DNA of 64,000 bases from Pirellulales bacterium (GCA_044370415.1 JBILVO010000002.1:14157-78156); one strand, 5' to 3'; counted from the stretch's first letter, positions 1,452 through 47,012 are shown. Program-made: numbers and translations. The notes: a model not told the origin generated them from the sequence alone.

Positions 1452-2559
1452 CCGGCGGGCGGCCAACCTGCGCACGCTGGCTCTGTTCGCCGGGCTGGTG
1501 ACCCTCGTGGGCCTGATCTCGTGGCCCTCGCTGGCCGGACGGGTGCAGTACGCGAAGACCCGTGCCGAGCTCGCCGCCATCCGCGACGCGGCCGCCGGCG
1601 CGGAACTGCGGTCGGTGGGAAAGCTGTTCACGACGCTGGCCCGTGTGATCGGCCCGGCGGTCGTGAACGTGACGAGCAGGCGGGAGTCGCACGCGCAGCC
1701 CGACGAGATCGGCGCCCTGCGCGGCGAGGGTGCTGGTGGCGGCACCGACGAGTCGGTCGGATCGGGCGTGATCGTGGAGGCCGACGGCATCATCGTCACC
1801 AACTACCACGTCGTGGCGCAGAGCGACGAGATCGAGGTCGCGCTGGCGGACGGCCGGCGGTTCAAGGCGAACCTGGTGGGGGCCGACGCCGGCAGCGACC
1901 TGGCAGTGCTGCGGATCGACGCCACGGGCCTGCCCACCGCCGAGTGGGCCGACAGCGACACGGTGGAGGTGGGCGAGATGGCCTGGGCCATCGGCAACCC
2001 GTTCGGACTCGATCGGACGATCACCTACGGAATCGTCAGCGCGGTCGGTCGCCGGGGCGTGGTCGACAATCCGTTTCAGGAGTTCCTGCAGACCGACGCC
2101 TCGATCAATCCGGGCAACTCGGGCGGGCCGCTCGTCGACGTGCACGGCCACGTCATCGGCATCACGACCGCCATCGTCGGCAAGGGGTTTCGCGGCATCG
2201 GCTTCGCGATTCCCAGCAACCGGGCGCGGCGCGTGTGCGAGGAGATCCGCACGACCGGGCACGTCGAGCGCGGCTATCTCGGCATGGAGGTGCGGGAGCT
2301 GCCGATGCCGCCGGGAGCGCGGGCGGCGGCCGGCGTGAGCGTGGCGGCGGTCGATCCCCGTTCGCCCGCGGCCCGGTCCGGCGTGAAGCCGGGCGACGTT
2401 GTGATCAGCTTCGACGGCGAGCCCGTGACGGAGCCGGCGGCGCTGGTGCTCCTGCTGCTGCGGTCGCCGGTCGGCGCCGAGGTGCCGATGGAGATCCTGC
2501 GTGACGGCACACGTCAGACCATCACCGTCACGGTCGGCAGGCGGCCGCACGAGCGGTAG
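1423..2559 (+). CDS. HtrA/DegP-family serine protease with PDZ domain
   Basis: It has an N-terminal hydrophobic anchor (LALFAGLVTLVGLI) and catalytic-triad contexts TNYHVV / DLAVLRI / GNSGGPL. The C-terminal segment is PDZ-like (GYLGMEV...GDVVISFDGEPV). It overlaps the cinA 3' end by 29 nt. Confidence 0.9.
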   Translation: MTRAVEPGDDRRAANLRTLALFAGLVTLVGLISWPSLAGRVQYAKTRAELAAIRDAAAGAELRSVGKLFTTLARVIGPAVVNVTSRRESHAQPDEIGALRGEGAGGGTDESVGSGVIVEADGIIVTNYHVVAQSDEIEVALADGRRFKANLVGADAGSDLAVLRIDATGLPTAEWADSDTVEVGEMAWAIGNPFGLDRTITYGIVSAVGRRGVVDNPFQEFLQTDASINPGNSGGPLVDVHGHVIGITTAIVGKGFRGIGFAIPSNRARRVCEEIRTTGHVERGYLGMEVRELPMPPGARAAAGVSVAAVDPRSPAARSGVKPGDVVISFDGEPVTEPAALVLLLLRSPVGAEVPMEILRDGTRQTITVTVGRRPHER

Positions 2560-2590
2560 AAGAGCGTGGACGCGGTCAGTGCGGGGCGGC

Positions 2591-2637
2591 CAGGGAAGAG
2601 AGTTCAGGGAAGAGAGTTCAGGGAAGAGAGGTCAGGG
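2591..2637. repeat. 14-bp tandem repeat CAGGGAAGAGAGTT x3 plus a partial copy, in the convergent htrA / ATPase intergenic region
   Basis: Read directly: cagggaagagagtt (2591-2604), cagggaagagagtt (2605-2618), cagggaagagaggt (2619-2632), caggg. It contains the stop codon (2632-2634) of the minus-strand ATPase gene. Confidence 0.9.
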
Positions 2638-5600
2638 CTTCGCGGCATCCTCGCCGCCCGGGGGGTCGTCGAGAAACTTCGTGAAGTTGAACTCGTCGGC
2701 GCCAAATCCCCCCGTGATTCCGAAGCCGTCGCCGGTGGCCGGCCGCGGCGCGGCGGTCGGCCGGGCGACCGGCCGCTCGGCCGGCGTGCCCTGTGGCCTC
2801 GCCTTCAAGGCCGCCGACACCGTGGCGAGCCAGTCGTCCGCCGGGAACGAGTAGGGACGGAACTTCTCCAGCGTGCCGGTCTCCTCGTGCACGAACAGCG
2901 CCCGCTGTGGACCGAGCTTCACGGCGGCGGGGCTGTCGACGAGCTGGCTCGAGTCGGAGCCGCTCATCTGGAAGATGACACGCAGCTCGAACTCCTTGAG
3001 CGTCGCCCGCTCGAACGTCCGCTGCAGATTCGTGAGGGAGTCGCACCAGACGAGCACGTGCACGCCGACGGGCGGGCCGTCCTTGAGCAGCGTCACGAGG
3101 TTCTGCGCGGGCGTCGCCTTGGCGTCGCCACTCATGGAGTAGCCGAAATCGCTCTCGTTGCGACGCAGTTCGCGAAACCGCGCCAGATCCCGGATGATCA
3201 CGAAGACGGCCTCGCCGTCGAGGACCTGATCCTCGATCCGGCGCTTCACCTCGTCGGCGAGCCTGGCGACGGCGTCGCCCACGCCGAGCGGATTGACCAT
3301 CTCGACCTCGTGCGGCAACGAGGGGGCGAGCCGCGCCAGCATGATGTCGGGCTTTTCCTGCGCGATTGCCGGTTCGAGCACGACGAACCGGGCCGCCCGG
3401 CCGACGCAGCCCCCCGGATGCGGATCGTGCCCCACCGCCAGGCTCATCATCGCCATCGCCAGCAGGCTGACGCCGAGATCCTCGCGCTGGCCGACGATCA
3501 GCAGGTTTGCGCCCCCCTGCCTGCGGAAGATCGCCGCCGTCGGATCCTTGATGGCGATGGCGTCGCCGAGCCAGGCGAGCGGTGCCACCGGCGGCTTGCC
3601 CGCCACGGTGCCGGAATCGAGCAGTTCGGAGAGCAGCCCGTTGCCCGCGGGGTTCGCCGCCTCGTTTCCGTCGAAGACGATCCGCGGCAGCGCCGGGATG
3701 TCGGTCCGCCGGTCGGCCAGTTCCCGCAGCTTGCCCAGGAACCACTCCCGGCGTTCATCGGTGAGAAAGACGACTTGGAAGTTGTTGTTGCCCTCGATCA
3801 TGCCGTTGGCGTCGTTGTAGATCGCCTCGCCGGGGCGGGTGAGGAGCCGGGCGGCCGTGTTGTCTTCGGAGAGGATCAGGCTGGAGTCGGCCTCGTTGCA
3901 CTGCAGGGCGATGCGGATGGCCATCTGGCCCATCGTCGCGCGGGGGAGGCTGTAGGAGCCGCCGAGTGTCTGCGAGCCCAGCAGCACATGCATGCCGAAG
4001 GCTCGGCCCTGCCGCACGAGCCGGTCGAGGATGAGCGCCGCATCCTGCGCGATCTTGTCGTCCTCGACGAAGATCTCCTGGAACTCGTCGATGATCAGCA
4101 GGATGCGCGGCATGGGGTCGGGATGGCCCGTCTCGCGGAAGCCCGCCACGTTCTGCACGGAGAGCTCGCGAAACAGGTCGCCGCGTCGCTTCAGCTCCCG
4201 GTCGAGCTGCTCCATCACCGAGAGGCCGAACTCCCGCTCGCTCTCGATGGCGATCACGCGGGCGTGCGGAAGCTTGTAGTGGTCGTAGAGCTTGAACTCG
4301 ACGCCCTTCTTGAAGTCGATGAGGTAGAACTGGATCTCGTTGGGGCTGTACTGCAGCGCGAGGCTCGTGATCATCGCGTGCATCAGCGTCGACTTGCCCG
4401 AGCCAGTCTTGCCCGCGATCAGGCAGTGCTGGCTCGTGCCCTTGCCGAGCTTGAGGCTCTGGATCTTCTTGGCGCCGGCCGGGCCGAGCGGCGCGACCAC
4501 CTCGTTGGCCGTGCTTCCGTGCCACCACTTTCCCTCCTCGGGTGCCACGCGGTCGAAGGGCACCTCGACCCGCTTGGCCGCCTGCGCCGCCTTGCCCACC
4601 CGCTGGATGATCCGCGTGAAGACGTCGTCGGGCGGCGGCTGCTCGACGGAGAGCGGCCACTTCCGGAACTCGGGATCGTTCCAGGTGTACACGCCGTTCT
4701 TGAGGACGAGCGTCGTGGAGTGCTTCTCGATGTCGTCGATCGAGAAGTTCGCCGGCACCGTCTGCGTGCCGTCGATCGAGACGATCGTGTAGACGCCGCA
4801 GCGCGCGCCCGATGCGGCGATGCTCGCCAGCCGGCGGGCGCTCGTCTCCGTGAAGTTGGCAGGGAAGTTGGCCACGACGACGAAGCGATACGGCTCGGGC
4901 ACCTCGGCGGCGGCGTTGTACGCCCCGATCGACTCGTACTCGTTGCGGAGATATTTCTGGATCACCAGTTCGATCTGCTCGGTGATGTCGGCGAGCTTTT
5001 GCTCGATGAGCGGCGGCTCCGTCCAGATGCGGCTGGTCACGAGGAGCTCGTCGTAGTCGGCCAGATGCATGAAGCCGGCGAACTGCTTTCCCAGTCCGAG
5101 CGGGTCGATGATCGTGAAGCGGGTCTGGCCGGCCGGCACGCCGCTGGCGATGCGCAGCATCAGCGCCTGCATCATGTCCGAGGCCACCTCCTTCTGGTCG
5201 GCCGTCGTCTTGATGAGGAGCGACGCCTCCACCGGGAACGGGACGATGGCCGGCTGCTTCCAGCTGATGGGGCCGAAGCCATTGAAGTCCGGGCGCTGCG
5301 ACACGCCGCCCGGAATCGACTCGAGGGAGAGCGCGAGATTGCCGAACCGCAGCCCGGGCGGCGCCGTCGCCGGGAGGGCAACGTCGCCGCGTGCCAGGTC
5401 GCCCCAGTCGCGGAAGGCCTCCGCATCGATCCGTGCCGCCTCGTCGAAGACGGCGGCGGTGTCGGTGCGGGCCGTCCGCCAGTCCTCGGTCATCTTCGCC
5501 CAATCGTCGTCCCGCCGGGTGGCCGCGGCGGCCAGACGGGCGTCGCGGTCGCTCTCGAGCGTCGCGAGCCTGCTCGTGCAGTCGGCGTCGAGCTTCTCGA

Positions 5601-6753
5601 TGAGCGGGGGATACTTCTTCTGGGCCGCCTCGCAGGATGCGGCCCGACGCTGCTCGATCTTCTGCTCGTACTCCGCGCACTTCGTCTCGAGGTCGGCCAG
5701 CGACTTGTCGCGTTTCTCCGCCAGCGCCTTGACCCGCGTCTCGAACGCCTCACGGGCTACCCTGGCCTCCTCCGCGAGCGTCTGCTCGAGCTTGACCACA
5801 TCGGCGTCGTGCCGCTTGCGCAGATACTCCGCGCAGCCGGCGTGGCAGCTCTTCGCGCGGGCGATCGTCGCCGCGAGCTCGTCGTGGAGCGCCGTCGCCT
5901 CTGCTACCGCCGTTCCACGCATCCTGCCGACGAGCCACCACCCACACGCCGCGCCGCCGCCGCCGAGGACGAACAGGGCACCCGCGGCGGCTGCGGCCTT
6001 CGTCGACATCGAGTCGGCGAGCGATGCCGGCAGGAGGAGGAAGACCGCGGCTGCGGCCAGCCCGCCGAGGAGGATGGGGATCGCGATGGCGGTCGCCATC
6101 ATCCCGCCGGAGAATGCCGTGGCCACGGCCTTGAGCCCGAGCAGTTTCGTCTTGCCGGCTTCGACCGCCTCACGGAGCTGTTCGAGGTGCGTGACGAGGG
6201 ACGAGCCCGTGGGCAACGGCTCCGCGTCCTGGGCCGGAGCCGCGTCGGTGGAGGGGCCGCGGCGTATCCGTCCCAGGAACGAACGTGCCTGCGAGTCGGC
6301 CTTGTCGAGGGCCTCGACGATCGTGGCCAGTTCCTTCTCCGACCGCCGCAGCCGCTTGCCCGGCTCGGAACGCTTGTGCTTTGACTGCTCCGCGACCGTG
6401 AGTTCGTCGAATGTGCGGGATTCCTGGACCTCCTCGTTTCCGTTCTTCCAGGCCCGGTTGATCTCCGCCGCCTTGTCCTTCCGCTGCTGCGCGAGCCGAC
6501 TGCGATCGTCGGCCACCAGCTTCTCCGCATTCCTGATCGCCTCCTCGAGCGCCCGCCGTGCCGCGCCGCTCTCCCGTGCATGGGCTTCCTTCACCGCGAC
6601 GATCTCCGCGTCGGACTCCGCACGGGCCGCCGCGGTCTCCCGGTCGAACGTGGCGACGATCTCTCGTTCGAGCTTCTCCCGGCTGGCGGCTGCCTGCCGG
6701 AGGCGATCGATCTGGCGCCGCAGGAGTTCGCGGTCGTAGGCGTCGTGGGACAC
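2632..6753 (-). CDS. Membrane-anchored FtsK/SpoIIIE-family multi-P-loop ATPase (EssC/EccC-like)
   Basis: 1373-aa ORF with a GTG start at 6753. Canonical Walker A LIAGKTGSGKST (~4387-4422) and Walker B ILLIIDEFQ (~4078-4104). These are flanked by two degenerate P-loop-like blocks (TIIDPLGLGKQF...YRFVVVANFP and LLIVGQREDLG...VFVIIRDLARF). Two hydrophobic spans lie at aa ~209-242 and ~252-276 (nt ~5925-6129), between long charged heptad-rich regions. Confidence 0.85.
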   Translation of the reverse strand: MSHDAYDRELLRRQIDRLRQAAASREKLEREIVATFDRETAAARAESDAEIVAVKEAHARESGAARRALEEAIRNAEKLVADDRSRLAQQRKDKAAEINRAWKNGNEEVQESRTFDELTVAEQSKHKRSEPGKRLRRSEKELATIVEALDKADSQARSFLGRIRRGPSTDAAPAQDAEPLPTGSSLVTHLEQLREAVEAGKTKLLGLKAVATAFSGGMMATAIAIPILLGGLAAAAVFLLLPASLADSMSTKAAAAAGALFVLGGGGAACGWWLVGRMRGTAVAEATALHDELAATIARAKSCHAGCAEYLRKRHDADVVKLEQTLAEEARVAREAFETRVKALAEKRDKSLADLETKCAEYEQKIEQRRAASCEAAQKKYPPLIEKLDADCTSRLATLESDRDARLAAAATRRDDDWAKMTEDWRTARTDTAAVFDEAARIDAEAFRDWGDLARGDVALPATAPPGLRFGNLALSLESIPGGVSQRPDFNGFGPISWKQPAIVPFPVEASLLIKTTADQKEVASDMMQALMLRIASGVPAGQTRFTIIDPLGLGKQFAGFMHLADYDELLVTSRIWTEPPLIEQKLADITEQIELVIQKYLRNEYESIGAYNAAAEVPEPYRFVVVANFPANFTETSARRLASIAASGARCGVYTIVSIDGTQTVPANFSIDDIEKHSTTLVLKNGVYTWNDPEFRKWPLSVEQPPPDDVFTRIIQRVGKAAQAAKRVEVPFDRVAPEEGKWWHGSTANEVVAPLGPAGAKKIQSLKLGKGTSQHCLIAGKTGSGKSTLMHAMITSLALQYSPNEIQFYLIDFKKGVEFKLYDHYKLPHARVIAIESEREFGLSVMEQLDRELKRRGDLFRELSVQNVAGFRETGHPDPMPRILLIIDEFQEIFVEDDKIAQDAALILDRLVRQGRAFGMHVLLGSQTLGGSYSLPRATMGQMAIRIALQCNEADSSLILSEDNTAARLLTRPGEAIYNDANGMIEGNNNFQVVFLTDERREWFLGKLRELADRRTDIPALPRIVFDGNEAANPAGNGLLSELLDSGTVAGKPPVAPLAWLGDAIAIKDPTAAIFRRQGGANLLIVGQREDLGVSLLAMAMMSLAVGHDPHPGGCVGRAARFVVLEPAIAQEKPDIMLARLAPSLPHEVEMVNPLGVGDAVARLADEVKRRIEDQVLDGEAVFVIIRDLARFRELRRNESDFGYSMSGDAKATPAQNLVTLLKDGPPVGVHVLVWCDSLTNLQRTFERATLKEFELRVIFQMSGSDSSQLVDSPAAVKLGPQRALFVHEETGTLEKFRPYSFPADDWLATVSAALKARPQGTPAERPVARPTAAPRPATGDGFGITGGFGADEFNFTKFLDDPPGGEDAAKP

Positions 6754-6857
6754 GGGCGTGGATCCGGTGGAGAGTCTGGTGGGGGCCGAAGGATGCGCTG
6801 GAAAAACACGTCACGGGGGGCGGGGGCCGCCGCGGGAGCGGGACGCACCGCCGCCGG

Positions 6858-7100
6858 TCAGGAATCGTCGGTGTCGCTCACGTCGCGGGCCGCGCGGGCG
6901 AGCACCTCCGCGAGCCGGCTGATGGCCTCGAGCGTCTCCTTGACCTTCGGCCGCAGGGGTTCGATGTGCTCCTCGTGAAATGCGCGGCTGGTGGCGTCGT
7001 CCCAGGAGTCGCGAGCCGACTCCCATTTGATGGCGAGATGTTTGAGCGCGAGCGCCAGTTTTGCCGCGCCGCCGGTCAATTCGCCGCCGTGGTAGCTCAT
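6858..7100 (-). CDS. 80-aa WXG100-like helical-hairpin protein
   Basis: Internal ATG at 7100 of ORF 6858..7295, overlapping the upstream gene's stop as ATGA (7097-7100). The sequence MSYHGGELTGGAAKLALALKHLAIKWESARDSWDDATSRAFHEEH... is helical with a central W-D-D-x5-F turn and sits next to the FtsK-like ATPase. The ORF track's 5' extension is Arg/Gly/Pro junk. Confidence 0.6.
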   Translation of the reverse strand: MSYHGGELTGGAAKLALALKHLAIKWESARDSWDDATSRAFHEEHIEPLRPKVKETLEAISRLAEVLARAARDVSDTDDS

Positions 7101-7711
7101 GACGCGGTCCCCCCGCGGTCGGCCCCGGGGGCGGTCGACGACGCGTCCGATGCGGCCGGCGGCTGCTCGTCGAGGCTGCGGCTCACCGACCCCGTCGCCC
7201 CTCCCTCGCCGCGGCTCGCCGCAGGGCTCGTCGCGCTGGTGTACTGGTCGAGCGAACGGAGCATCCGTTCCAGGCGGGCCATCGACCGCGGGCAATCGAT
7301 GTCGATCACCTCGCGAAACCGCGTGAGCCGCACCCCCGCCTCCTGCATCTCCTGGCGGACGATCGGCGTCCAGCGTCGGACCGCCTCCGCCTTCCGCTCG
7401 GCACGGGCGAGCTTCTTCTTGGCCTTCTCCAGCGCCTTCTTCTCCTCGGCGCAGGCCGGCTCGTTGTCGCCCACCTTCTTGTAGGTGCGGCAGTGCTGGA
7501 GGTCTTTCATGGCCTGGTTGACGCCGTCGGCGGCCCGGCGCACCTCCACCTTCCAGTAGGCCGCTTGGTCGACGCAGATCCAGTCGATGATGCGTTGGGC
7601 CTGCATCTCGACCTCGGTGATTCCCTGCCCGGTCTCATGCGAGAAGGCCACCAACGCCGTCTTCACGAACGTGATGGTGTCGATCGACTTGACATCGGCC
7701 TGGGTGGACAT
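7097..7711 (-). CDS. 204-aa helical protein of unknown function with a disordered Ser/Ala/Gly-rich tail
   Basis: Internal ATG at 7711 (MSTQADVKSIDTI...) of ORF 7097..8260, with GGAG 7-10 nt upstream. The coding-like composition begins there. It has a K/E/A/R-rich central helix (EEKKALEKAKKKLARAERKAEAVRR). I recognise no family. Confidence 0.6.
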   Translation of the reverse strand: MSTQADVKSIDTITFVKTALVAFSHETGQGITEVEMQAQRIIDWICVDQAAYWKVEVRRAADGVNQAMKDLQHCRTYKKVGDNEPACAEEKKALEKAKKKLARAERKAEAVRRWTPIVRQEMQEAGVRLTRFREVIDIDCPRSMARLERMLRSLDQYTSATSPAASRGEGGATGSVSRSLDEQPPAASDASSTAPGADRGGTAS

Positions 7712-7797
7712 GGTGCGACGCTCCATGCCGCGGGCCGCGGGGATCGGCTGCCTCCCGGTTTCCCGGACGGCGCGGCCCCGCGACGCGGCGGTTCTGC

Positions 7798-8070
7798 TCA
7801 GCGCTGCTGCTGGTATTCCTCGACCCGCTCCGCCTTCCGGATCAGGTACGGGACGTAGTCGCCCGTGGCCTCGACGAAGCGGCTGAAGGTGCCCAGCTGC
7901 TGCTCGAACTCCTCCGCGAACTTCTGCTGTTCCTGGTCCCGCCAGGTGGCGCTGAGGGCTGCCAGCTGCCGCTGCACCGCCTGCATCTGCGCCATCACCT
8001 CGGTGCTGAAGACGCGCAGCCGCGCCGCAAAGCGGCGGAGTTCCTGCGGATCGACGATGACCTGTCCCAT
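7798..8070 (-). CDS. 90-aa WXG100-like helical-hairpin protein
   Basis: Internal ATG at 8070 (MGQVIVDPQELRRFAARL...) of ORF 7798..8277, preceded by GAGGAGAGGAA. Two long helices are joined by TWRDQEQQKF (W-x-D-x5-F, at the position of WxG). The size and layout match ESAT-6/EsxA-type proteins. Confidence 0.65.
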   Translation of the reverse strand: MGQVIVDPQELRRFAARLRVFSTEVMAQMQAVQRQLAALSATWRDQEQQKFAEEFEQQLGTFSRFVEATGDYVPYLIRKAERVEEYQQQR

Positions 8071-8329
8071 GGGATTCCTCTCCTCGGCCCGCAGAGATGA
8101 CGCCGGGGCAACGCCGCCGCGGGCCGCGGACTCCGGCACCGCACTGGACGGCGACCTCCCCGACTGCCACCATCGTATCGCGCCGGCCGCGGAAACGCAC
8201 AGGGAGCCGCTCCCTTTGGGCCGGCCGCCCGCTGTGCTTCTGCGGTGGCGAAGCGTACACTCTGCGGGCCGGTCCACAATCCGCTCACGAATCCGCTCAC
8301 GTAGAATCGCCGAGGAGACGTTCCGACCG
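8071..8329. promoter_or_regulatory. Divergent intergenic region between the WXG-like operon and the hemQ-like gene
   Basis: 259 bp lie between two divergent start codons, so the region must hold both promoters. It contains the exact tandem direct repeat at 8278-8301. No -35/-10 boxes are assigned. Confidence 0.4.
8278..8301. repeat. Exact 12-bp tandem direct repeat AATCCGCTCACG x2 (followed by a partial tagAATCgc)
   Basis: Read directly at 8278-8289 and 8290-8301, about 30 bp upstream of the hemQ-like ATG. Confidence 0.9.
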
Positions 8330-9232
8330 ATGCAGCCGACGACTCCCCACGGCGCCGCCCGGCCGCCGGCCGCCGGCGCTCCCGGCCATTCCGCCCAACC
8401 GGGAGGCCAGCCCGGAGGCGGCGAGGCGTCGATCTCGCCGGCCGTCGGCTGGCACGTCAGCCACCTCTTCTACCGCTTCGACCGGACGCGGCTCGCGGCG
8501 CTCGAGCCGGCCGTGAGGGCCGAGGGCGCGAGGCAGTTCATCGCCGCGCTCGACCCGGCGGGGCCGGATGCCCCGACCCGGCTGCAGACCTGGCTGGTGC
8601 CCGGCCACAAGGCCGATTTCGGCGTCATGGCGCTCGATGCCTCGCCGTTGCGGGTCGAGGCCGTCCACCAACGGCTGCTGGCGGGCCCGCTGGGGCCGGC
8701 CATCGAGCCGGCCTGGTCGTTCATCGGTCTGACGGAGGTGAGCGAATATGTGCCCACCGTCGAGCAGTACGGCGAGCGGCTCGTGGAGGAGGGGGAGACA
8801 CGGGGCAGCCCGACCTGGCAGGCCAAGGTGCAGGGATACGCGGCTCGCGAGGAGTCGATGCGACGGGCACGGCTCGAGCCTGAAATGCCACCGTGGCCCA
8901 ACGCCTGCTTCTATCCCATGAACAAGAAGCGGAAGGTGGGTGAGAACTGGTTCACGCTGCCGTTCGCCGAGCGCAGTCGCCTGATGGCGGAGCACGGCCG
9001 GACGGGGATGACGTTCGGCGGACGCGTGACGCAGCTGATCACCGTGAGCGTCGGCCTCGACGACTGGGAATGGGGCGTCACGCTCTGGGCGCGGCGGCCC
9101 GAGTTTCTCAAGGAGATCGTCTACACCATGCGGTTCGACGAGGCGAGCGCTCGCTACGCCGAGTTCGGCCCCTTCTACACGGGGTACGTGCATTCGGCGG
9201 CCGACATTCTGGCCCTGTGCCGCGTCTGCTGA
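8330..9232 (+). CDS. Chlorite dismutase-family protein (HemQ/ChdC-like coproheme decarboxylase)
   Basis: Internal ATG at 8330 of ORF 7865..9232, with GAGGAG upstream. Motifs typical of the Cld/HemQ family: WHVSHLFYRF, FYPMNKKR..ENWF.LPF..R..LM.EHG, and LITVSVGLDDWEWGVTLWA. Confidence 0.8.
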   Translation: MQPTTPHGAARPPAAGAPGHSAQPGGQPGGGEASISPAVGWHVSHLFYRFDRTRLAALEPAVRAEGARQFIAALDPAGPDAPTRLQTWLVPGHKADFGVMALDASPLRVEAVHQRLLAGPLGPAIEPAWSFIGLTEVSEYVPTVEQYGERLVEEGETRGSPTWQAKVQGYAAREESMRRARLEPEMPPWPNACFYPMNKKRKVGENWFTLPFAERSRLMAEHGRTGMTFGGRVTQLITVSVGLDDWEWGVTLWARRPEFLKEIVYTMRFDEASARYAEFGPFYTGYVHSAADILALCRVC

Positions 9233-9239
9233 CGGATGG

Positions 9240-9977
9240 TCACTTGCCGTCGGGCCGGGCGGTCGCTCCGCCACTGGCGGCCGCCGCCGAGAGGAGAATG
9301 TCCACCTCGGTGCCCTTGGGCGGCACGCGGCCCGCGAAGGACTCGAAGAGCAACGCCTCGTTCGACTGCGAACTCTCGATCGTGAGGTCGAGCGTCGCCG
9401 TGGGGAAGTTGGAGACGCAGATCAGGTCGCCGCCGTCGCCCTGGTAGTACTCCTTCCCGTCGCTGGGATCCTTCCAGAAGGAGCTGCCCGCGAACACCCA
9501 GTCCTCGCGCATCGCCTCGCCGGAGCGGGTGTCGCGGACCCAGTCCTGGGCCCGCAGCTCCCGGACCATGCCGTCGCCGTCCTTCCAGCGCAGCCGCACG
9601 CGGACGGTCGGTCCCGACGCGGCGGCGTATTCGGGGTCGAACGTCACCGGCCTGCCGGGCTTCAGGCCGATGGCCACCAGCGCGGTGTGGACGAGCCGGG
9701 CCGAGCAGCGCGTGGCCAGGAGTGACTCGTAGTCCTTCGTGCCCTGCGGGCAGGCGAAGTACTCGATCGGCCCCTTGTCGACAGACACATCGGCACCGAC
9801 GACGACCGTCTTCGTGGCCGGATCGATCCACACCTCCTCGACCGGCGAGAGTCTCTTGAACTCCGGGTGACGGTCGACCGTGGAGGCCTTCGGGGCGGGG
9901 TCTGCGGCCGGGCAGGGCGGGGCACCCGCGACCAGCCACGAGGCGAGGATCAGGAGGGCTGCGAGCCGCGACCGCAT
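9240..9977 (-). CDS. Secreted protein of unknown function (signal peptide)
   Basis: ATG at 9977 gives MRSRLAALLILASWLVAGAPPCPA, a Sec-type signal. The composition is coding-like. It is convergent with the hemQ-like gene across only a 7-bp gap. I cannot verify the family. Confidence 0.65.
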   Translation of the reverse strand: MRSRLAALLILASWLVAGAPPCPAADPAPKASTVDRHPEFKRLSPVEEVWIDPATKTVVVGADVSVDKGPIEYFACPQGTKDYESLLATRCSARLVHTALVAIGLKPGRPVTFDPEYAAASGPTVRVRLRWKDGDGMVRELRAQDWVRDTRSGEAMREDWVFAGSSFWKDPSDGKEYYQGDGGDLICVSNFPTATLDLTIESSQSNEALLFESFAGRVPPKGTEVDILLSAAAASGGATARPDGK

Positions 9978-10102
9978 GAGTGGTCCCCCGGGGGGCGGCC
10001 CGTGGATGCCGGGCCTGGATTGGGCTACCATACCCGACCACTCCGGAGCGTGCGAACGCGCAGCGGAGTTGCACGATCCTCGAGCGGGACGAAGCCGAAG
10101 CG

Positions 10103-11917
10103 ATGGCGACGAAGCAGGCGGGCGGCCGACGAGCCGCGGCGAGAAAGACCAACGCAGGCGCGTCGCCGCAGGTCAAAGACGGCCCGCGTCGCCATCCGCA
10201 TGCGACGGCGACCGCCGCGGCAGTCGAGCCGCCGCCCACGGTGGGGTCGAGGCTGGCGGGCCGCCGCATCCGCGGCGGGGCGGAGCTGAGCGATTCGATC
10301 GACGTGCGCCGGCGGCTGCGCCGTCTGGCCCGGCAGATCGAGCGGGGGCCGAAGCACGTCCAGCGGATGAATTTCATCGAGGCCGCGATCGGCGACTGTC
10401 TCGACGACGCGGCCTCTATGGAGGCCGGCGTCGATCGCTGGCTGCTGTGCGAGGCGGCCACCTGGGGCCTGGCGTGGATGGCCCGCACCAGGCGGGCCGG
10501 CGGTTCGGCGGGCGGCATCCTCGAGCGGCTCGTGCGCACGGCCCGTTCCGCCCAGACGTGTCTCGACGCGGGCGACACCTCCCCGGCCCGGTTCATGCTG
10601 ACGCTGGCGAGGCTGTTTCGCGACATCGAGGCCTGCCGATGCCTGGAGTCCCCGGCCGCGACCGCGCTGTCCGCGGAGATCTCGCGGCTGGTGTCGGTCG
10701 AGGGCAGCGTGAGCCTGCACGGATCGTCGGCCATCGTCAGCCGGGTGGCACGCTGGGCGTCGGCGCGTGACGTCGCGTCGGCCACCGGGCCGGCTGCCTG
10801 GGACGAACCCACGGACGAGGCGTTCGGCAGGGCCGTGGCGACGGCGCTGCGGCTGCTCGGCGGACAGGGCCGCATGCTCGTGGGGGCGGGGCGGATGCCC
10901 GCCGCGTTCTCAGCTCCGGTGATGGATGCGGCTGCGGATGCCGAATGCAAGCGGGTGCGGCGGTCGGCCCGGCTGATGCGCGACGCTCCGAAGGCAGCGC
11001 AGGCCGCGAAGCAGCGACGCCGGACCCTGGCTCGAGACATGCACGACGCCGCGGCGGCGACGGCCATCCTCCGTTCCGGCTGGGATCGGGACGCGGTGCG
11101 GGTGCTGCTCGAGTATCGCGACACCGTCCCGCACCTGGAGATCGCGGTGGGCGACAGGCTGCTCGTCGACGGACCGTGGCGGTGGCGCGTGCTCGCCGAC
11201 GGCAGGCCCCTCGATGCCGAAGGGCCGTGGACCCTGTCGTGCTGGGAATCAGACCGGAAGGCCACCTTCCTCGAGATCGTCGCGCCGCTCGCCGGCGGCC
11301 TGCAGATCGAGCGGCAGATCGTGCTCCTGCCGAAGGATCGGGTGGTCCTGCTGGCCGACGCCGTGACCCGACGGGCGGGGCATGCGGAGCCGTCCAACGG
11401 CCATGCCCAGGGCGTGCATATGCGTGGCGCGGGCGGCGGAATGGCCGTGGAGTCGTTCGTGCCGCTGGCGGCCTCACTGGAGGGGGAGCAGGCCGAGGAG
11501 ACCCGCGAGGTGCTCGTCTACGACACGAAGCCCCGGCTCCTCGCGCTGCCGCTGTCGCTGCCGGAGTGGAAGTCGGCCGGCCACGGCGGCTTCGCGGTGA
11601 CGGCGGGTGGGCTCTCGCTCGAGCAGGCCACGGCCGGCTCGCGCTGCCACGCCCCGCTCTGGCTCGACCTCGACCCGCGTCGGCAGGGACGGCCGCTGAC
11701 GTGGCGGCAGCTCACGGTGGCCGACACACGCCGCAACCTGCCGCCGCACCAGGCGACGGGGTATCGCGTGCAGGTGGGCCGCGAGCAGTGGCTCGTCTAT
11801 CGGGCGCTCGACGTCGCCCGCAACCGCACGCTGCTGGGGTGCAACGTGTCGTGCGAGTTCCTCGTGGGAAGGATCGGCCGCTCCGGTGTCGTCGACAGGC
11901 TGATCGAGATCCAGTAA
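10103..11917 (+). CDS. Hypothetical protein, possibly with a heparinase II/III-like C-terminal domain
   Basis: ATG at 10103 (MATKQAGG...) within ORF 9980..11917. The C-terminal pattern HLEIAVGDRLLVDGPW...SCWESDRKATFLEI...IERQIVLLPKDRVVLLADAV resembles the heparinase II/III C-terminal fold. The assignment is weak. Confidence 0.55.
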   Translation: MATKQAGGRRAAARKTNAGASPQVKDGPRRHPHATATAAAVEPPPTVGSRLAGRRIRGGAELSDSIDVRRRLRRLARQIERGPKHVQRMNFIEAAIGDCLDDAASMEAGVDRWLLCEAATWGLAWMARTRRAGGSAGGILERLVRTARSAQTCLDAGDTSPARFMLTLARLFRDIEACRCLESPAATALSAEISRLVSVEGSVSLHGSSAIVSRVARWASARDVASATGPAAWDEPTDEAFGRAVATALRLLGGQGRMLVGAGRMPAAFSAPVMDAAADAECKRVRRSARLMRDAPKAAQAAKQRRRTLARDMHDAAAATAILRSGWDRDAVRVLLEYRDTVPHLEIAVGDRLLVDGPWRWRVLADGRPLDAEGPWTLSCWESDRKATFLEIVAPLAGGLQIERQIVLLPKDRVVLLADAVTRRAGHAEPSNGHAQGVHMRGAGGGMAVESFVPLAASLEGEQAEETREVLVYDTKPRLLALPLSLPEWKSAGHGGFAVTAGGLSLEQATAGSRCHAPLWLDLDPRRQGRPLTWRQLTVADTRRNLPPHQATGYRVQVGREQWLVYRALDVARNRTLLGCNVSCEFLVGRIGRSGVVDRLIEIQ

Positions 11918-15170: not shown

Positions 15171-16997
15171 TCAGCCCGGCATGCCCTCGAGGAACGTCTC
15201 GAGCTGCCGCGACCGCACCGGATGCTGCAGCTTCTTCACCGCCTTCGCCTCGATCTGCCGCACGCGCTCCCGCGTGACGCGGAAGATGCGGCCGACCTCT
15301 TCCAGCGTGTAGGTGTAGCCGTCGGTGAGGCCGTACCGCAGGCGGATGATCTCACGCTCGCGATACGTGAGCGTCTTGAGCAGCGAATCGAGGCGGTCCT
15401 TGAGCAGCCCGTGCGTGGCGGAATGCGTGGGGCTCACCGTCGCGACATCCTCGACGAACTCGCTGAAGCTCGCGTCCTCGCTCTCTCCGACGGGGCGGTC
15501 GAGGCTCATCGGCTGACGTCCCATGTCGAGCACACGCCGCGCCTCCTCGAGCGGCACGCCGGCCGCCTGCGCGATCTCCTCCGCCGCAGGCTCGCGGCCC
15601 AGCTCGTGCAGCAGCTTCTTCGCCGTGGTGCGCAGCTTCGAGAGCACGTCGATCATGTGGACCGGAATGCGGATCGTCCGGGCCTGGTCGGCGATGGCCC
15701 GCGTGATCGCCTGGCGGATCCACCATGTGGCGTAGGTCGAAAACTTGAAGCCGCGACGGTACTCGTACTTGTCGACGGCCCGCATGAGCCCCGTGTTGCC
15801 CTCCTGGATGAGGTCGAGGAAGCTCAGGCCGCGGTTGCGGTACTTCTTCGCGATCGAGACCACGAGCCGCAGGTTGGCCGCGGAGAGGTTCCGCTTGGCG
15901 GCCTCGTACTCCTCCTTCAATCGGCCGAGCGCGTCCACCCGCCGCCGCAGCGACCGCGGGCTCTCCAGCGTCGTGAGCATGAGGTCGCGGAGCTCCTTCC
16001 GCCTGTCGGCCCGTTCGTCGGTCGCCATGTGGCCGGCCTCCATGAGCCGGAGGTCGCGCTGCAGGCCGTCCATCCGGGCCGACATGCCGCGGAGCACCTT
16101 GACCAGCGGCTGCACGCGCCGCGTCCGCAGGCTCAGCTCCTCGACGAGCGCCAGCGACTTGCCGCGGGAGCGGCGGAAGCGAGCCCGCGCCGCCCGCGCG
16201 TCGGCGGGATCCGTGCGGCGGCTGATGAGGAGGCGGAAGTCGGCCTTGCCCTGCTCGATGAGGTGCTCGAGCGTCTGCAGGTTGTGCGGCATCCGCGCCT
16301 GGATCTGCTCCTTGGTGAGCCGCTCCGTGAGCGACACCTTGATCGTCCTGTCGAACGGGAGCTTCCCCTCGTGCACCCGGCGGAGCGTCTCGACCGTCGC
16401 CTGCATCGAGTAGGAGCAGCCGAGGATCGCGCGGCGAAACCGCTTCCGCGTGACTTCGATCCGCTTGGCGAGCGAGATCTCCTCCGCGCGTGTCAGCAGC
16501 GGGATCTCGGCCATCTGCGCCAGGTACATCCGGATCGGGTCGTTGCCCGCATTCGCCGGCGGCGTGGTGATCGCCTCGTCGCGGCGGGGCTGGCCGGGCC
16601 GCGATGCTGCCGCCCGGGCCGGCTCGCGGGGCCCGGCGTCGTCGACGGTGGGAGCTACGTCGACGAGCTCGATCCCCTGTTCCTCGAGGGCCACCAGGAG
16701 CGCGTCGATCTTTTCCGGGTCGACGGCCTCGTCGGGCAGGTAGGAGTTGACCTGGTCGAACGTCAGATACCCGAGCTTCCGGCCGGTGGCGATCAGGGCT
16801 GCGAGGTCGGCGTCGGCGTGGCCGGCGGCCGACGGCCCGCTGGCGGCAACGGCATCGGCCCGGTCTTCGCGGGTCGACGACGAAACCTGCCCGTCACGGG
16901 TCGACGGCGCATCGTCGCCGGACGACGACGCCGGCTGCGGGTCGCGGTTGGATGGCTTGGGCTGGGACATCGGCCGGGCGGTCGCGGATCGACGCAT
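15171..16997 (-). CDS. rpoD: Primary RNA polymerase sigma factor (sigma-70, RpoD)
   Basis: Motifs [53 protein letters not shown], plus region 4 [21 protein letters not shown] at 16997 lies 7 nt after a perfect AAGGAG; the track's GTG at 17015 sits inside that SD. Confidence 0.95.
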
Positions 16998-17102
16998 CGG
17001 GTGGTTCTCCTTCACGATCGTACCGTCACCTCGCGCACCGCCCCCCGACCGGCCGGAGGCAGTGCTTCCGGACGGCCGATTGCAGCGACGAGACGGGCAC
17101 CC

Positions 17103-19103
17103 TCACCCATCCTTGGGATCAGTCATGCCCTGAGCGGCCCGCCGTTGGGCGACGAGCTGCTCCAGAAGAGCCGCCTCCGAGCCGGGATCCAGCTGGGAGG
17201 TTTTCAGTGTGCGTGCGCTGCGGTGCGCCTGCCGCTCGGCGGAGCGGCGTCGCAGGGCGTCGCGCAGGTGGTCCATGCGTTCGCGGCCGTCGACCGTGGT
17301 GCGGCCGGCGCTCGACTCGTCGACAGCGACGAGCAGGCTCTGGACGACGGGATCGGCGATCTCGAGGAGCAGGCCTGAAAGGGCGACGGGCCGCCCGTCG
17401 GCGTGCAGCCGGCGGGCCGCTTCCAGGACGACCCGGCCCTCCGAGCTCTCGAGCTCGGAGGATTCCACCTCGCGGACGATGAGGCCCGCACCCTCGGGCA
17501 CCCCGACGAGCACCTCGATCACCTCGCGGTCCCAGGCGGAGAGCCGGGGCAGGCTCGCCGGCGCGGTCCCGGCGTCGCGGCCGCGGCCAGCGCCGGCCGA
17601 CTGTTTCCGCAGCGCGGCGAGACGGGAGCGGAGGGCCTCACGCGACAGCCCGAATCGTCGCGACAGCCGTCCCATGACCTGATCCTCGCGCAGCCGACCC
17701 TCCGACGGGGCGGCGGCGGTCGTCGACGCGGTGGCCAGCGCCTTGAGAACGCTCTCGACACCGGCCAGGGCGGCGTCGTCTCCCGCATCCGGAGGCAGCC
17801 GGGCGACGATCTCGTCGAGCCGGTAGTCGAGCGGGTCGCAGGCCGACGAGACGAGGGCCTCGAACGCGTCGCGGCCGTTGTCGAGGACGAACTCGCAGGG
17901 GTCGACGCCCGACGGCAGCCGTGCGATCCGCACGTCGATCGGCTCGGCGAGGATGACGTCGAGGATCTCGTCGGCACGGCGGCGGCCGGCGTCATCGCCG
18001 TCGAGCACCAGCACGATGCGGTCGGCGTAGCGGCGCAGCAGCTTGGCATGCCGCTCTCCCAGCGCCGTGCCCAGCACCGCCACCACGTCGTCGATGCCCG
18101 CCTGTCGCGCCGCGAGGCAGTCGGTGTAGCCCTCGACGACGACCGCCCGCCGCGATCGGCCCATCGCCTCCCGGGCGGTGTCGAGGCCGTACAGCATCGA
18201 GCTCTTCGAAAAGAGCGGCGTTTCCGGTGAATTGATGTACTTTGCGGAATCGGCCGCGGCGCCGGGCAGGACGCGGCCGCCGAAGGCCACGCACCGCGAC
18301 TGCGGGTCGAGGATCGGAAACATCAGGCGGTCTCGGAAGCGGTCGTAATGACCCGAGCGGTCCTGCCGCTCCACGGCCAGGCCGGTCCGCGCCAGGATCG
18401 CCGACGACATGCCGGCCGCCGCAGCCTGCCGGAGCAGCCAGTCCCACGAGGCGGGGGCGAAGCCGAGACGGAATCGCTCGAGGGTCGTCTTGTCGAGGCC
18501 GCGCGAGGCGAGGTAGTCGCGGGCGGGGCCGGCCTCCGGGGCCGACGTGAGGCAGGCGTGGAAGCGGTCGGCGGCCCAGGCCAGCGTGGCGAGCATCGCC
18601 GCCTTCTCGTCGGTCGGCATGCCGCCCCGCCCACGGGGCAGGTCGATGCCGGCCCGCTGCGCGAGCTGCTCGAGCGCCTCGCGGAACTCCAGCCGCTCCA
18701 TCTTCATCAGGAAGCTGAACGCGTCGCCGCCGATGTTGCACACCCAGCAGCGGAAGGTCTGGCGCTCCGGGTTGACGTGGAAGCTGGGACGGGAGTCCTC
18801 GTGCCACGGGCACAGCCCGACCATGGCCTTGCCCTGCCGCCGCAGCGACAGGTATGAGCCCACCAGATCGACGATATCGATCGCATCCCGAACCCGCTCC
18901 TTCAGGTCGTCGTGCGAGCCCTGAGGAAATGCCGGCGGGAATGCTGTGGGAGTCACGGTCGGCGTGTTTCCGGCGGTACGATTCGAGGACACCGTCGGAA
19001 TGTAGGAGCGTTCGCCGAACGGGTCAATCGCAGGAATCGACGCCCCAAACGGCCTGTTTTGCCGCGGCGAGACTGGGCTTGCCAAACCACCGTCGAGTCG
19101 CAC
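17103..19103 (-). CDS. dnaG: DNA primase DnaG
   Basis: CHC2 zinc finger CPWHEDSRPSFHVNPERQTFRCWVC, and a TOPRIM block VVVEGYTDC...VLVLDGDDAGRRRA. The true start is probably internal (for example GTG at 18956 or 18992) because the first ~45 aa have poor codon bias. It lies immediately upstream of rpoD. Confidence 0.9.
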   Translation of the reverse strand: MRLDGGLASPVSPRQNRPFGASIPAIDPFGERSYIPTVSSNRTAGNTPTVTPTAFPPAFPQGSHDDLKERVRDAIDIVDLVGSYLSLRRQGKAMVGLCPWHEDSRPSFHVNPERQTFRCWVCNIGGDAFSFLMKMERLEFREALEQLAQRAGIDLPRGRGGMPTDEKAAMLATLAWAADRFHACLTSAPEAGPARDYLASRGLDKTTLERFRLGFAPASWDWLLRQAAAAGMSSAILARTGLAVERQDRSGHYDRFRDRLMFPILDPQSRCVAFGGRVLPGAAADSAKYINSPETPLFSKSSMLYGLDTAREAMGRSRRAVVVEGYTDCLAARQAGIDDVVAVLGTALGERHAKLLRRYADRIVLVLDGDDAGRRRADEILDVILAEPIDVRIARLPSGVDPCEFVLDNGRDAFEALVSSACDPLDYRLDEIVARLPPDAGDDAALAGVESVLKALATASTTAAAPSEGRLREDQVMGRLSRRFGLSREALRSRLAALRKQSAGAGRGRDAGTAPASLPRLSAWDREVIEVLVGVPEGAGLIVREVESSELESSEGRVVLEAARRLHADGRPVALSGLLLEIADPVVQSLLVAVDESSAGRTTVDGRERMDHLRDALRRRSAERQAHRSARTLKTSQLDPGSEAALLEQLVAQRRAAQGMTDPKDG

Positions 19104-19150
19104 GACGCAGGCGTGATGGATCCCTGCAAGACCGCGCGTGAGCGGCGCGG

Positions 19151-19190
19151 CGTCAGGCGCGATCAGGCAAGATCAGGCGCGATCAGGAAA
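19151..19190. repeat. 10-bp tandem repeat (C/G)(G/A)TCAGG(C/A)(G/A)(C/A) x4 (cgtcaggcgc gatcaggcaa gatcaggcgc gatcaggaaa)
   Basis: Read directly. It contains the response-regulator stop codon (19183-19185) and lies between that gene and the dnaG start. Confidence 0.9.
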
Positions 19191-32714: not shown

Positions 32715-33244
32715 GGGTACCTCCACCTGATGATGGGATAAGCCCCGCCCTGACGTAAAAAGTCGTCCGACCGGTGGGCACATCATCCTGCCGGCCAACC
32801 CCCCGCGAACGTCGAAGAGTGTACGAGAGGTCGAGGTCCGACGGCAATGGGGTTTGTGCACGCCGAGCCTTTTCCCAGCCGGCCTGACGCGGCCTGCGAT
32901 TCTTCATCGGCACGACGCCAACCCCAGCGAGAGTATGCGGGGCAGGCGTTGCTTCGGTTCATCAGGACGGGGCAGGCCGCCGCCGCCGGTCGCCCCACGG
33001 TGCCCCTGACCCGCGCCGCGGCGGCGCTGGAAAAGACAGGTCGGCCAGCGCGGCGATGGACGCAGCGACTGCGTTATCCGGTACGCTAAGGGCCCGGTCA
33101 GGAGCGGCCTGGGCGGGTGGCTGCCGCCGCGAGAAGGGGTGCGGCGGACGGCAGGTGGGTGGCGACCGAACGAAGTGGGAGCATGGCATGCTGCGGACAC
33201 TTTTTCACCATGACGCAGGCCCAACGGATTGCAGCGAGTGGCGG

Positions 33245-44114: not shown

Positions 44115-44738
44115 TCAGCTCCGCGGGGCTTCGCCGTCGAGCGCGACGCGGATCGCCTCGCGTGCCGCCCGCCAACGCGACTTCACCGTCCGCTCGGAGC
44201 AGCCCATGAGGCCGGCGATCGTCTTCTGGTCGCAGCCGAGGTACCAGACGAGGTGAAACACCTCGCGCTCGTCGTCGGGCAGAGCGGCGATCGCCTCATG
44301 GAAAAGCGTCCAACGGTCGAGGCTGGCATCCTCGGCGGGGCTGTGGTCGATGTAGTGCGCGGCGGTGCCGTCGACGACGCCACGGGGCATGACGTTGGTG
44401 CCGTGGTTGGCGGCGTACGAGGCGGGGCCGGCGTGCCGTCGGGCCAGGTCGATCAGCTCGCGGTGCAGCTGCGTCGCGGCGAGGGCCATGATCGACCGCG
44501 GCGAGTCGAGCGTGAGCGCGCCGAGCGCGCGATGAAGCCGCATGGCGGCGTTCTGGAAGACGTCGTCGGTATCTTCCCAGCGACGGACAGTCGGATAGCG
44601 GCCGAGCATCCGGTGGGCGAGGCGGCGGAGCCGCTCGCTGCAGAGCTCGATGATCCGGTTGCGAGCGGAAAGATCGCCGGCGGCGAGCCGCTCGAGGCAG
44701 GCGGCGAGCTCCGGTGATTCGTGGTCGGCGGCGTCCAT
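44115..44738 (-). CDS. ECF-type sigma-70 family RNA polymerase sigma factor
   Basis: ATG at 44738 (MDAADHES...). Region 2-like DDVFQNAAMRLHRAL. Region 4: EREVFHLVWYLGCDQKTIAGLMGCSERTVKSRW. Confidence 0.85.
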   Translation of the reverse strand: MDAADHESPELAACLERLAAGDLSARNRIIELCSERLRRLAHRMLGRYPTVRRWEDTDDVFQNAAMRLHRALGALTLDSPRSIMALAATQLHRELIDLARRHAGPASYAANHGTNVMPRGVVDGTAAHYIDHSPAEDASLDRWTLFHEAIAALPDDEREVFHLVWYLGCDQKTIAGLMGCSERTVKSRWRAAREAIRVALDGEAPRS

Positions 44739-46988: not shown

Positions 46989-47012
46989 TGCGGGTTTCCG
47001 TAGCGATCTGCG

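Follow-up and report, generated by a model that had tools for sequence, protein, structure and literature searches.

In a 64,000-nt stretch of DNA from a Pirellulales bacterium (GCA_044370415.1 JBILVO010000002.1:14157-78156), referred to below as the window and used as the reference for coordinates, four genes on the minus strand form a cassette encoding a 90-amino-acid (aa) protein of the WXG100 family (WXG-A), a 204-aa protein of no known family (p204), an 80-aa WXG100-like protein (WXG-B) and a 1373-aa membrane ATPase resembling EccC and EssC of type VII secretion systems (T7SS) (Table 1). The reading that we favour, with somewhat better than even confidence, is that these four genes constitute a compact T7SS-like protein export module characteristic of the Planctomycetes-Verrucomicrobia-Chlamydiae (PVC) superphylum. 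The positions and sizes of the four genes given in the initial annotation of this DNA agreed exactly with the sequence, and so did the motifs listed there (TWRDQEQQKF, SWDDATSRAF, GKTGSGKST and LLIIDEFQ), the overlap between the genes for p204 and WXG-B, and the flanks, consisting of a convergent gene for an HtrA-like protease and a divergent gene for a chlorite-dismutase/HemQ-like protein. The overlap is an ATGA in the sequence gtcATGAgc, combining the stop codon of the p204 gene with the start codon of the WXG-B gene, and the remaining gaps within the cassette measure 86 nt and 104 nt. If translation of p204 began at another ATG, in frame and 15 nt upstream of the start used here, the protein would have 209 aa, which is its length in the public gene call P0080.

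Table 1 Position of the cassette genes and of the regions of the ATPase in the window.
Feature	Position	Strand	Description
WXG-A gene	7798..8070	-	90 aa, ATG start; WXG100 family, W-R-D turn TWRDQEQQKF
p204 gene	7097..7711	-	204 aa, ATG start; no known family
WXG-B gene	6858..7100	-	80 aa; WXG100-like, turn SWDDATSRAF
ATPase gene	2632..6753	-	1373 aa, GTG start; EccC/EssC-like membrane ATPase
ATPase aa 1-210	6124..6753	-	N-terminal coiled coil, probably cytoplasmic; no Pfam domain
ATPase aa ~211-280	5914..6123	-	putative membrane hairpin, two hydrophobic spans
ATPase aa ~281-440	5434..5913	-	predicted coiled-coil stalk; generic matches only (apolipoprotein A-I, aa 275-429)
ATPase D0, aa 441-745	4519..5433	-	conserved alpha/beta domain, FtsK-like fold, no P-loop
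ATPase D1, aa 746-1015	3709..4518	-	FtsK/SpoIIIE domain, the only catalytic-looking one
ATPase Walker A, aa 781-789	4387-4413	-	GKTGSGKST, in D1
ATPase Walker B, aa 885-892	4078-4101	-	LLIIDEFQ, in D1
ATPase last domain, aa ~1025-1318	2800..3681	-	degenerate FtsK-like domain, alpha/beta in the AlphaFold2 model
ATPase tail, aa 1319-1373	2635..2799	-	disordered, pLDDT <50; terminal motif (D/E)EFNFxKFLDD
Presumed cassette promoter region	8071..8330	none	divergent intergenic region between the WXG-A gene and the HemQ-like gene; assigned by position only

In a scan using one genome per species, 114 relatives of the ATPase were found and 80 loci were kept for comparison. All four proteins are encoded in the same order at 61 of these 80 loci, with identities of 54-93%, and the open reading frames (ORFs) of the cassette are therefore real, selected genes and not chance ORFs. 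Their GC content at third codon positions (0.85-0.92) is typical of real genes in this genome of 70% GC. The sequence GAGGAG, resembling a ribosome-binding site, lies upstream of the ATG of the WXG-A gene. A promoter scan of positions 2400-8600 found no sigma-70-like or consensus site, and in a terminator scan of the same interval terminator-like sites occurred at chance frequency and on the wrong strand.

WXG-A is a bona fide member of the WXG100 superfamily, scoring 41 bits against Pfam PF06013 (gathering threshold 27.3, E 2.4e-10, profile positions 2-76 of 86) and E 1e-8 against NCBIfam TIGR03930. When its family profile was compared to the PDB, the closest solved relative was HP0062 of Helicobacter pylori (3FX7/2GTS; E 1e-10), which matched colinearly over the full length, followed by EsxB/EsxA of Bacillus anthracis and Staphylococcus aureus with E values of 2e-7 to 2e-4. 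With 90 aa, WXG-A is in the size class of about 100 residues, and judged by this colinear match to a crystal structure it is predicted to fold as a helix-turn-helix hairpin. HP0062 itself is a helical-hairpin antiparallel dimer with 'WRD' in place of WxG and with an FtsK/SpoIIIE protein as neighbour (PMC3397514), and the turn W-R-D-x4-K-F is common to both proteins. In WXG-A, the turn reads W43-R-D45, i.e. the glycine of W-x-G is replaced by Asp. W43, D45, K50 and F51 are invariant, the homologue from Verrucomicrobiota (L082) included; for D45, invariance refers to an alignment of eight sequences (A4) that contains this homologue, and the residue is conserved in the family of 52 sequences. No hydrophobic segment or signal peptide was found in WXG-A, WXG-B or p204.

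The initial annotation had described both small proteins as WXG100-like. For WXG-A this was borne out above the Pfam threshold, whereas WXG-B reached only 23.6 bits of the 27.3 required by PF06013 (E 6.4e-5, profile positions 18-85 of 86). Seven of the 16 members of the WXG-B family match PF06013 at E<=0.01 (best E 5.6e-5), W33 and D35 of the W-x-D turn are invariant, and a comparison of the two families by hhalign aligned them at the W turn with an E value of 0.002. From its profile matches, we classify WXG-B as WXG100-like, below the family threshold. A profile of WXG-B (alignment A5) also scored about 1e-9 against transcription activator-like effector (TALE) repeats in the PDB, but with zero significant single stretches; we discarded this score as an additive artefact, because a short match of the type 'LEAIGRLAEVL' had been summed over the repeats.

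The third small gene product, p204, is predicted with high confidence to be a long antiparallel helical hairpin. In the AlphaFold2 model, which was built from 40 homologues and has a mean predicted local distance difference test (pLDDT) score of 80.8 with 131 residues at >=90, a helix comprising residues 3-78 is joined by a loop (79-87) to a second helix (88-161), followed by a disordered tail of about 40 aa rich in Pro, Ala, Ser and Gly. The family found no match in Pfam, NCBIfam (E<=0.1) or PADLOC and no relative in the PDB by profile sequence search. A Foldseek search with the model returned generic coiled coils only, with nothing at E<=1e-3, and hhalign detected no relation to the families of WXG-A and WXG-B. 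Membership in the LXG family (PF04740) or among the Lap DUF proteins was considered and rejected, as Pfam and NCBIfam gave no match and the likeness is one of general shape only. All of the 540 homologues are annotated as 'hypothetical'. Homologues of p204 hold the same position of the cassette in Gemmataceae and Verrucomicrobiota (E 1e-19 to 1e-53). The initial annotation gave p204 no part in its interpretation; the protein is conserved and probably one of the core players of the cassette. C74 and C87, which flank the predicted tip of the hairpin, are invariant and C140 is nearly so. A disulfide staple in p204 would hint at an oxidising, extracytoplasmic location; this hint is a weak one, since the homologues from Verrucomicrobiota have no cysteines.

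The ATPase displays the two hydrophobic spans mentioned in the initial annotation, one with Kyte-Doolittle values of >=1.6 over aa 209-250 and a Gly/Ala-rich one at about aa 253-278. These spans would form two transmembrane helices anchoring the protein, with the ATPase domains in the cytoplasm. The N-terminus, in which Pfam found no FHA domain, is likely to be cytoplasmic and the number of transmembrane helices even, because the homologue of Urbifossiella limnaea carries a Ser/Thr protein kinase domain there. Pfam PF01580 (FtsK_SpoIIIE) recognised a single domain (aa 753-929, E 3.9e-30) within D1, and the best PDB matches of D1 are the D1 domains of EccC (4nh0, 7np7) and YukB (9qks). The motifs GKTGSGKS, DEFQ and RQGRAFG(I/M)H are invariant across the PVC homologues. 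D1 is flanked by two domains that are related to it in sequence: hhalign matched D0 to D1 with E 0.0017, D0 to the last domain with E 2.4e-4, both colinearly, and D1 to the last domain (aa ~1040-1310) with a probability of 95% and E 1.9e-8 over 206 columns. In D0, GK[ST] is absent at the equivalent position in every PVC homologue, and in the last domain the places of Walker A and Walker B are taken by 'LLIVGQREDLG' and 'VFVIIRDL', respectively, both being conserved in all PVC homologues. The conserved non-P-loop sequences of the flanking domains can be written as 'LL(I/V)(V/I)GQ...' and 'F(T/V)(I/F)(I/V)DP(L/V)GLG'. Exactly one strict Walker A was present per ATPase in every PVC homologue examined. 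The description of the ATPase as a multi-P-loop protein in the initial annotation thus has to be revised to three FtsK-like folds, only one of which has Walker A and B motifs.

An AlphaFold2 model of aa 441-1373 (pLDDT 77.8) likewise consists of three alpha/beta domains. Foldseek aligned it over 975 columns with the three-ATPase cytoplasmic region of EccC from Thermomonospora curvata (E 2.3e-31), followed by D2-D3 fragments of EccC and EssC, whereas FtsK motors matched one domain only (about 310 columns, 8e-12). The same order was obtained with the family profile against the PDB (EccC 3.7e-41, EccC5 3e-34, YukB 8e-31, FtsK 1.8e-13) and with NCBIfam, in which EccCa reached 114 bits (8e-33), EssC 103 (1e-29), EccCb 100 (8e-29) and FtsK 36 (1e-9). 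The gamma (PF09397) and alpha (PF17854) domains of FtsK are absent from the ATPase, though present in true FtsK matches. The ATPase is therefore closer to EccC/EssC than to FtsK and other DNA translocases, and clustering with such translocases, named in the initial annotation as a result that would speak against secretion, was not observed, nor did any other of the refuting outcomes listed there occur. As for a known anti-phage defence system, PADLOC matched the P-loop domain to generic FtsK/HerA-type models (SspH, mad8) and the three small proteins to nothing, and we rejected this candidate. JGI records P0001, P0005 and P0006 call the ATPase 'energy-coupling factor transporter ATP-binding protein EcfA2', with which its domain content disagrees. 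At the C-terminal end, a disordered Pro/Ala-rich linker is followed by residues that hardly vary within the close family (F1355, F1357, L1361, D1362 and P1365); the terminal motif is absent from the homologues of Verrucomicrobiota and Gemmataceae and could be a docking or autoinhibitory peptide.

A survey across PVC genomes, as proposed in the initial annotation, found the four-gene unit kept in both Planctomycetota and Verrucomicrobiota while its flanks change. The order of the cassette is preserved in about 60 planctomycete metagenome-assembled genomes (MAGs), in the cultured U. limnaea and in Verrucomicrobiota. Among the related loci WXG-A is the most conserved gene product with a median identity of 84% (62 loci), compared to 70% for WXG-B, 64% for the ATPase and 63% for p204. 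In close relatives, the flanks are syntenic too, with hemQ and a gene for a signal-peptide protein upstream and htrA and cinA downstream. At distant loci, the four genes stand together with wholly changed flanks and mostly overlap by a few bases. These loci are a contig with a 43%-identical ATPase, the locus L084, two contigs with a WXG-A sequence that NCBI assigns to Verrucomicrobiota, whose flanks differ from each other, and the complete genome of U. limnaea (CP036273.1), a cultured Gemmataceae strain. Hidden Markov models derived from the clade of the window detected all four genes there, with E values of 1e-19 to 1e-53 for p204 and of 2e-8 to 1e-30 for WXG-B. At every locus with enough flanking sequence, in two phyla, the genes for the ATPase and the WXG100 protein belong to the same operon. 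In U. limnaea, the ATPase (L087 3958-12722) has 1573 aa with the kinase domain at its N-terminus, and a separate gene for a 965-aa kinase lies immediately upstream of the WXG100 gene, an arrangement that suggests phospho-regulation of the module in this organism. An exhaustive HMMER search found at least 150 clusters (50% identity) of proteins of about 1300 aa matching aa 445-1320 of the ATPase end to end, and the WXG-A profile matched 7,778 clusters at 90% identity in public data; with these numbers, the cassette family is large and common in environmental data. Ten of the related loci (L032, L037, L045, L051, L061, L063, L070, L076, L077 and L080) contain the same syntenic planctomycete region and are filed in the databases as, for instance, 'Candidatus Kuenenia' or 'Chitinophagaceae'. 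These names look unreliable, because the sequences share 62-78% identity (best tblastn segment) and, in the 7 of the 10 whose contigs extend far enough, also the flanks with MAGs of Pirellulales/Planctomycetaceae.

With respect to further components, none of EccB, EccD, EccE, MycP, EsaA, EssA, EssB and EsaB/YukD was found among the approximately 40 Pfam-scanned genes of the window, in agreement with the initial annotation, and EccB, EccD, EccE and MycP were not present in the gene tables of the related loci either. The 64-kb window contains no paralogue of any cassette protein, and no relaxase, integrase or mobile-element context was recognised among its genes. Toxin or immunity genes beside the cassette were found in none of six independent genomic contexts.

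The cassette can be compared to T7SS of several types. EssC, the ATPase of T7SSb (Ess/Yuk), consists of a cytoplasmic N-terminal region, two transmembrane helices and C-terminal ATPase domains (PMC10765036), and the ATPase of the cassette is alike in having an N-terminal cytoplasmic region, two putative transmembrane helices and tandem FtsK-like domains, the first of which is a P-loop-less D0-like fold. As in T7SSb, a WXG100 gene heads the operon, small partners with predicted helical hairpins flank a longer helical protein in the manner of Lap/LXG, and the link to a kinase in one lineage of the cassette recalls FHA/kinase control. The cassette differs from T7SSb by the lack of EsaA, EssA, EssB and EsaB/YukD among the window genes, by a coiled coil (or kinase) where EssC has two FHA domains, by three ATPase folds instead of four with Walker motifs in one only, by the W-x-D instead of the W-x-G turn, by the absence of an LXG domain or toxin, and by its diderm host. 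With T7SSa (ESX) it shares the ATPase, whose best match both in sequence and in predicted structure is EccC (T. curvata 4nh0; EccC5 7np7), an operon with two small genes of the WXG type that recall the EsxB/EsxA pair, and a host envelope with a second membrane as in mycobacteria. In contrast to T7SSa, EccB, EccD, EccE and MycP are missing from the window and the related loci, the p204 gene lies between the two small ones, and there is one catalytic P-loop versus three nucleotide-binding domains.

Two further comparisons concern less well studied systems. HP0062 of H. pylori corresponds to WXG-A in size, in the W-R-D-x4-K-F turn and in the lack of a signal peptide; it is likewise encoded near an FtsK/SpoIIIE protein (HP0066) in a Gram-negative host and is uncharacterised, but belongs to another phylum. 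For HP0062 and HP0066 together, the term 'minimal set' of T7SS has been used (PMC4978471). The variants T7SSc-T7SSj are defined by an EssC-like ATPase (TsxC) and a WXG100 protein (TsxA) with variable accessory genes, and are often associated with kinases, phosphatases and FHA proteins; all ten named T7SS subtypes come from Bacillota or Actinomycetota (Garrett, Higginson & Palmer 2024, PMC11217815). The cassette fits the definition by ATPase and WXG100 protein, whereas most of these variants carry a ubiquitin-like TsxB and further membrane proteins, of which the PVC cassette has none, having p204 instead.

Taken together, homology gives good support to the view that the cassette is a self-contained T7SS-like module, and protein export would be its function by analogy. 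This reading builds on WXG-A, which lies above the WXG100 threshold and has its nearest match in HP0062, an ESAT-6-like dimer sharing its turn, and on the ATPase, which ranks EccC/EssC over FtsK in NCBIfam, PDB profile and Foldseek searches and combines the layout of EssC with the lack of gamma and alpha FtsK domains. It is strengthened by the recurrence of the four-gene order in 61 close loci, in L084, in U. limnaea and in Verrucomicrobiota between unrelated flanks, and by the kinase-ATPase fusion of Gemmataceae, a parallel to the control of T7SS variants by FHA/kinase in Gram-positives (PMC11217815). Every T7SS substrate known is a helical N-terminal domain paired with small helical partners (PMC10730906); since p204 is predicted to be a long helical hairpin, its position between two WXG-like genes fits this pattern.

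In the mechanism that we propose, the ATPase would be anchored in the cytoplasmic membrane by its two-helix hairpin and, by analogy with EccC/EssC, assemble into a hexamer with the transmembrane helices lining a channel. Export would be powered by the single intact P-loop domain, i.e. the middle one resembling D1 of EccC, and the two FtsK-like domains without P-loop may serve as scaffold or as regulatory or substrate-docking modules. As its clients we envisage the helical hairpins, free of signal peptides, whose genes lie upstream of that for the ATPase. WXG-A may dimerise as HP0062 does or pair with WXG-B, and p204 would probably bundle with WXG-A and WXG-B into a rod-like pre-secretion complex, as LXG/Esx substrates do with their WXG100-like partners. 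The folded complex would then cross the inner membrane into the periplasm or the cell envelope. The hexamer, the complex of the small proteins and export itself are features that we infer. A more far-reaching version of this proposal is a self-sufficient T7SS of four proteins, in which the one-site ATPase would be the whole inner-membrane translocon and the three hairpins would be exported as a composite bundle; it would represent a minimal, possibly ancestral T7SS, the first in classical diderms, with a housekeeping role at the envelope or cell surface and not in warfare. We put this forward tentatively, as an idea that is possible but on the doubtful side.

Several points weigh against an exporter. 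All T7SS characterised so far depend on additional subunits in the membrane (EccB/D/E or EssA/EssB/EsaA), and the cassette comes without a second membrane protein or an outer-membrane component. Its ATPase has one catalytic fold out of three and one domain fewer than EccC/EssC, the tandem arrangement of which comprises D0/DUF plus three nucleotide-binding domains, i.e. four folds and not three. While WXG-A and the FtsK/SpoIIIE domain matched PF06013 and PF01580 as anticipated in the initial annotation, the EccC/EssC models of NCBIfam ranked top but their equivalog cut-offs were widely missed (TIGR03924 114/509, TIGR03925 100/347 and TIGR03928 103/778 bits). Taken alone, the P-loop domain resembles the generic FtsK-like domains found in defence proteins as well (SspH, 92 bits), for which reason the kinship to T7SS has to be judged from the ranking, the multi-domain structural match and the linkage to WXG100 genes together. 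In both WXG-A and WXG-B, the glycine of WxG is an Asp, and inspection by eye gave no convincing match to the export motifs YxxxD/E and HxxxD/ExxhxxxH (PMC3935865) in either protein. The neighbourhood of the cassette in the window is one of housekeeping genes (cinA, htrA, hemQ, yggS, greA, rpoD and dnaG), and the median identity of WXG-A exceeds that of HtrA (69%), both of which would suit a structural or regulatory function inside the cell no less than a secretion core. The main alternative is an intracellular membrane-associated housekeeping machine, acting for example in envelope biogenesis, in cell-cycle/developmental control or in the remodelling of coiled-coil scaffolds, with the WXG-like proteins as adaptors or regulators and not as cargo. 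Such a machine would explain why WXG-A is conserved above the neighbouring housekeeping proteins (84% vs 61-69% median identity), why the cassette sits amid core genes and is vertically syntenic in about 60 genomes, why the locus has no toxin/immunity genes, outer-membrane component or further membrane subunit, and why a single ATPase site is active; in addition, the authors of the HP0062 structure were undecided between an ESAT-6-like and a chaperone/adaptor role (PMC3397514). We nevertheless consider it rather unlikely, as the ATPase is nearest to T7SS motors in sequence and predicted structure. To our knowledge, WXG100 proteins paired with such ATPases are exported wherever this was tested. 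High conservation of the EsxA type is equally expected of core components of secretion (PMC10765036).

If the cassette does export proteins, it might be a weapon for T7SS-like effector delivery, in which the four genes provide the core apparatus and co-secreted targeting factors, and the cargo (LXG-, Rhs- or toxin-type proteins with their immunity partners) is encoded elsewhere. Precedents are available, in that EsxA of Bacillota is a universally required core component while the genes for toxins frequently lie apart from the ess locus (PMC10765036), and polymorphic toxin families with a WXG-type N-terminus have been catalogued in many phyla, planctomycetes included (PMC3239186). We regard this alternative as quite unlikely, given that toxin/immunity genes are missing beside the cassette in all six contexts, that the 64-kb window holds no extra WXG-, p204- or FtsK-like paralogue, and that the cassette does not show the variability typical of antagonism loci. 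A role as DNA translocase or as coupling ATPase of conjugation (FtsK/TraB/TcpA-like), assisted by accessory proteins, is in our view very improbable. The P-loop domain does belong to the FtsK/SpoIIIE family (PF01580), with weak matches to models of the FtsK, TcpA and TrwB types, but the scores of FtsK and TcpA fall 20-30 orders of magnitude short of that of EccC, and the missing PF09397 and PF17854 domains, the lack of a relaxase, integrase or mobile-element context and the strict linkage to WXG100 genes all argue in the opposite direction.

Apart from the cassette, some other genes of the window deserve mention. A 263-aa protein (9240-10031, minus strand) that belongs to no Pfam family and whose N-terminus resembles a signal peptide is encoded in synteny with the cassette in most close relatives, with hemQ in between, and a 645-aa ORF of no family (9980-11917, plus strand) adjoins its gene; neither of the two accompanies the cassette in distant genomes. 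In the window, about 7 kb separate the dnaG-rpoD pair (15171-19172, minus strand) from the cassette, and in the distant locus L084 (1936-5745) the distance is about 3-5 kb; this proximity may have survived from an ancestral synteny with the macromolecular-synthesis operon. Further away, a gene for a 2338-aa protein (25887-32903, minus strand) comprises PA14, GLEYA, Calx-beta, glycoside hydrolase family 10 and immunoglobulin-like domains, and its domain content points to what is probably a secreted or surface adhesin-enzyme of the xylanase type. A 1073-aa Ser/Thr kinase with a long array of WD40 beta-propeller repeats is encoded at 47004-50225 (plus strand), with a gene for an extracytoplasmic function sigma factor nearby (44115-44804).

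Parts of this picture were already public. The 90-aa protein is labelled 'WXG100 family type VII secretion target' by NCBI and 'YukE' by JGI, the ATPases carry the public label FtsK/SpoIIIE, and pairs of WXG100 and FtsK proteins in Gram-negatives have been noted as uncharacterised (PMC10765036, citing Sutcliffe 2011 and Unnikrishnan 2017). A full-text literature search found no papers on T7SS in Planctomycetota. Planctomycetes and Verrucomicrobia are reportedly among the phyla for which Sutcliffe listed such pairs. The degree of novelty claimed in the initial annotation was thus too high, considering the public WXG100 label, the Gram-negative pairs (PMC10765036) and the 'minimal set' of HP0062/HP0066 (PMC4978471). 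What the present analysis appears to add is the strict definition of the four-gene unit, the ATPase with three folds and one site, the third protein with its predicted long hairpin, the kinase-fused variant and the kinship between WXG-A and HP0062.

T7SS have so far been defined and studied only in Actinomycetota and Bacillota, and texts of 2026 still assign them to mycobacteria and to Gram-positive bacteria. A PVC-wide module that has a single membrane protein would amount to a natural experiment on the minimal needs of a T7SS, and it raises the questions whether an ATPase hexamer alone can act as channel and what roles the non-catalytic FtsK-like domains and the WXG100 proteins play. Since the cassette is present in the cultured U. 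limnaea, with its complete genome, as well as in very abundant freshwater lineages, these questions are testable. Should the module act inside the cell instead, it would reveal a non-secretory role for the pairing of WXG100 proteins with EccC-like ATPases; if the export reading is true, it would be a new protein-export route for bacteria with outer membranes and unusual envelopes.

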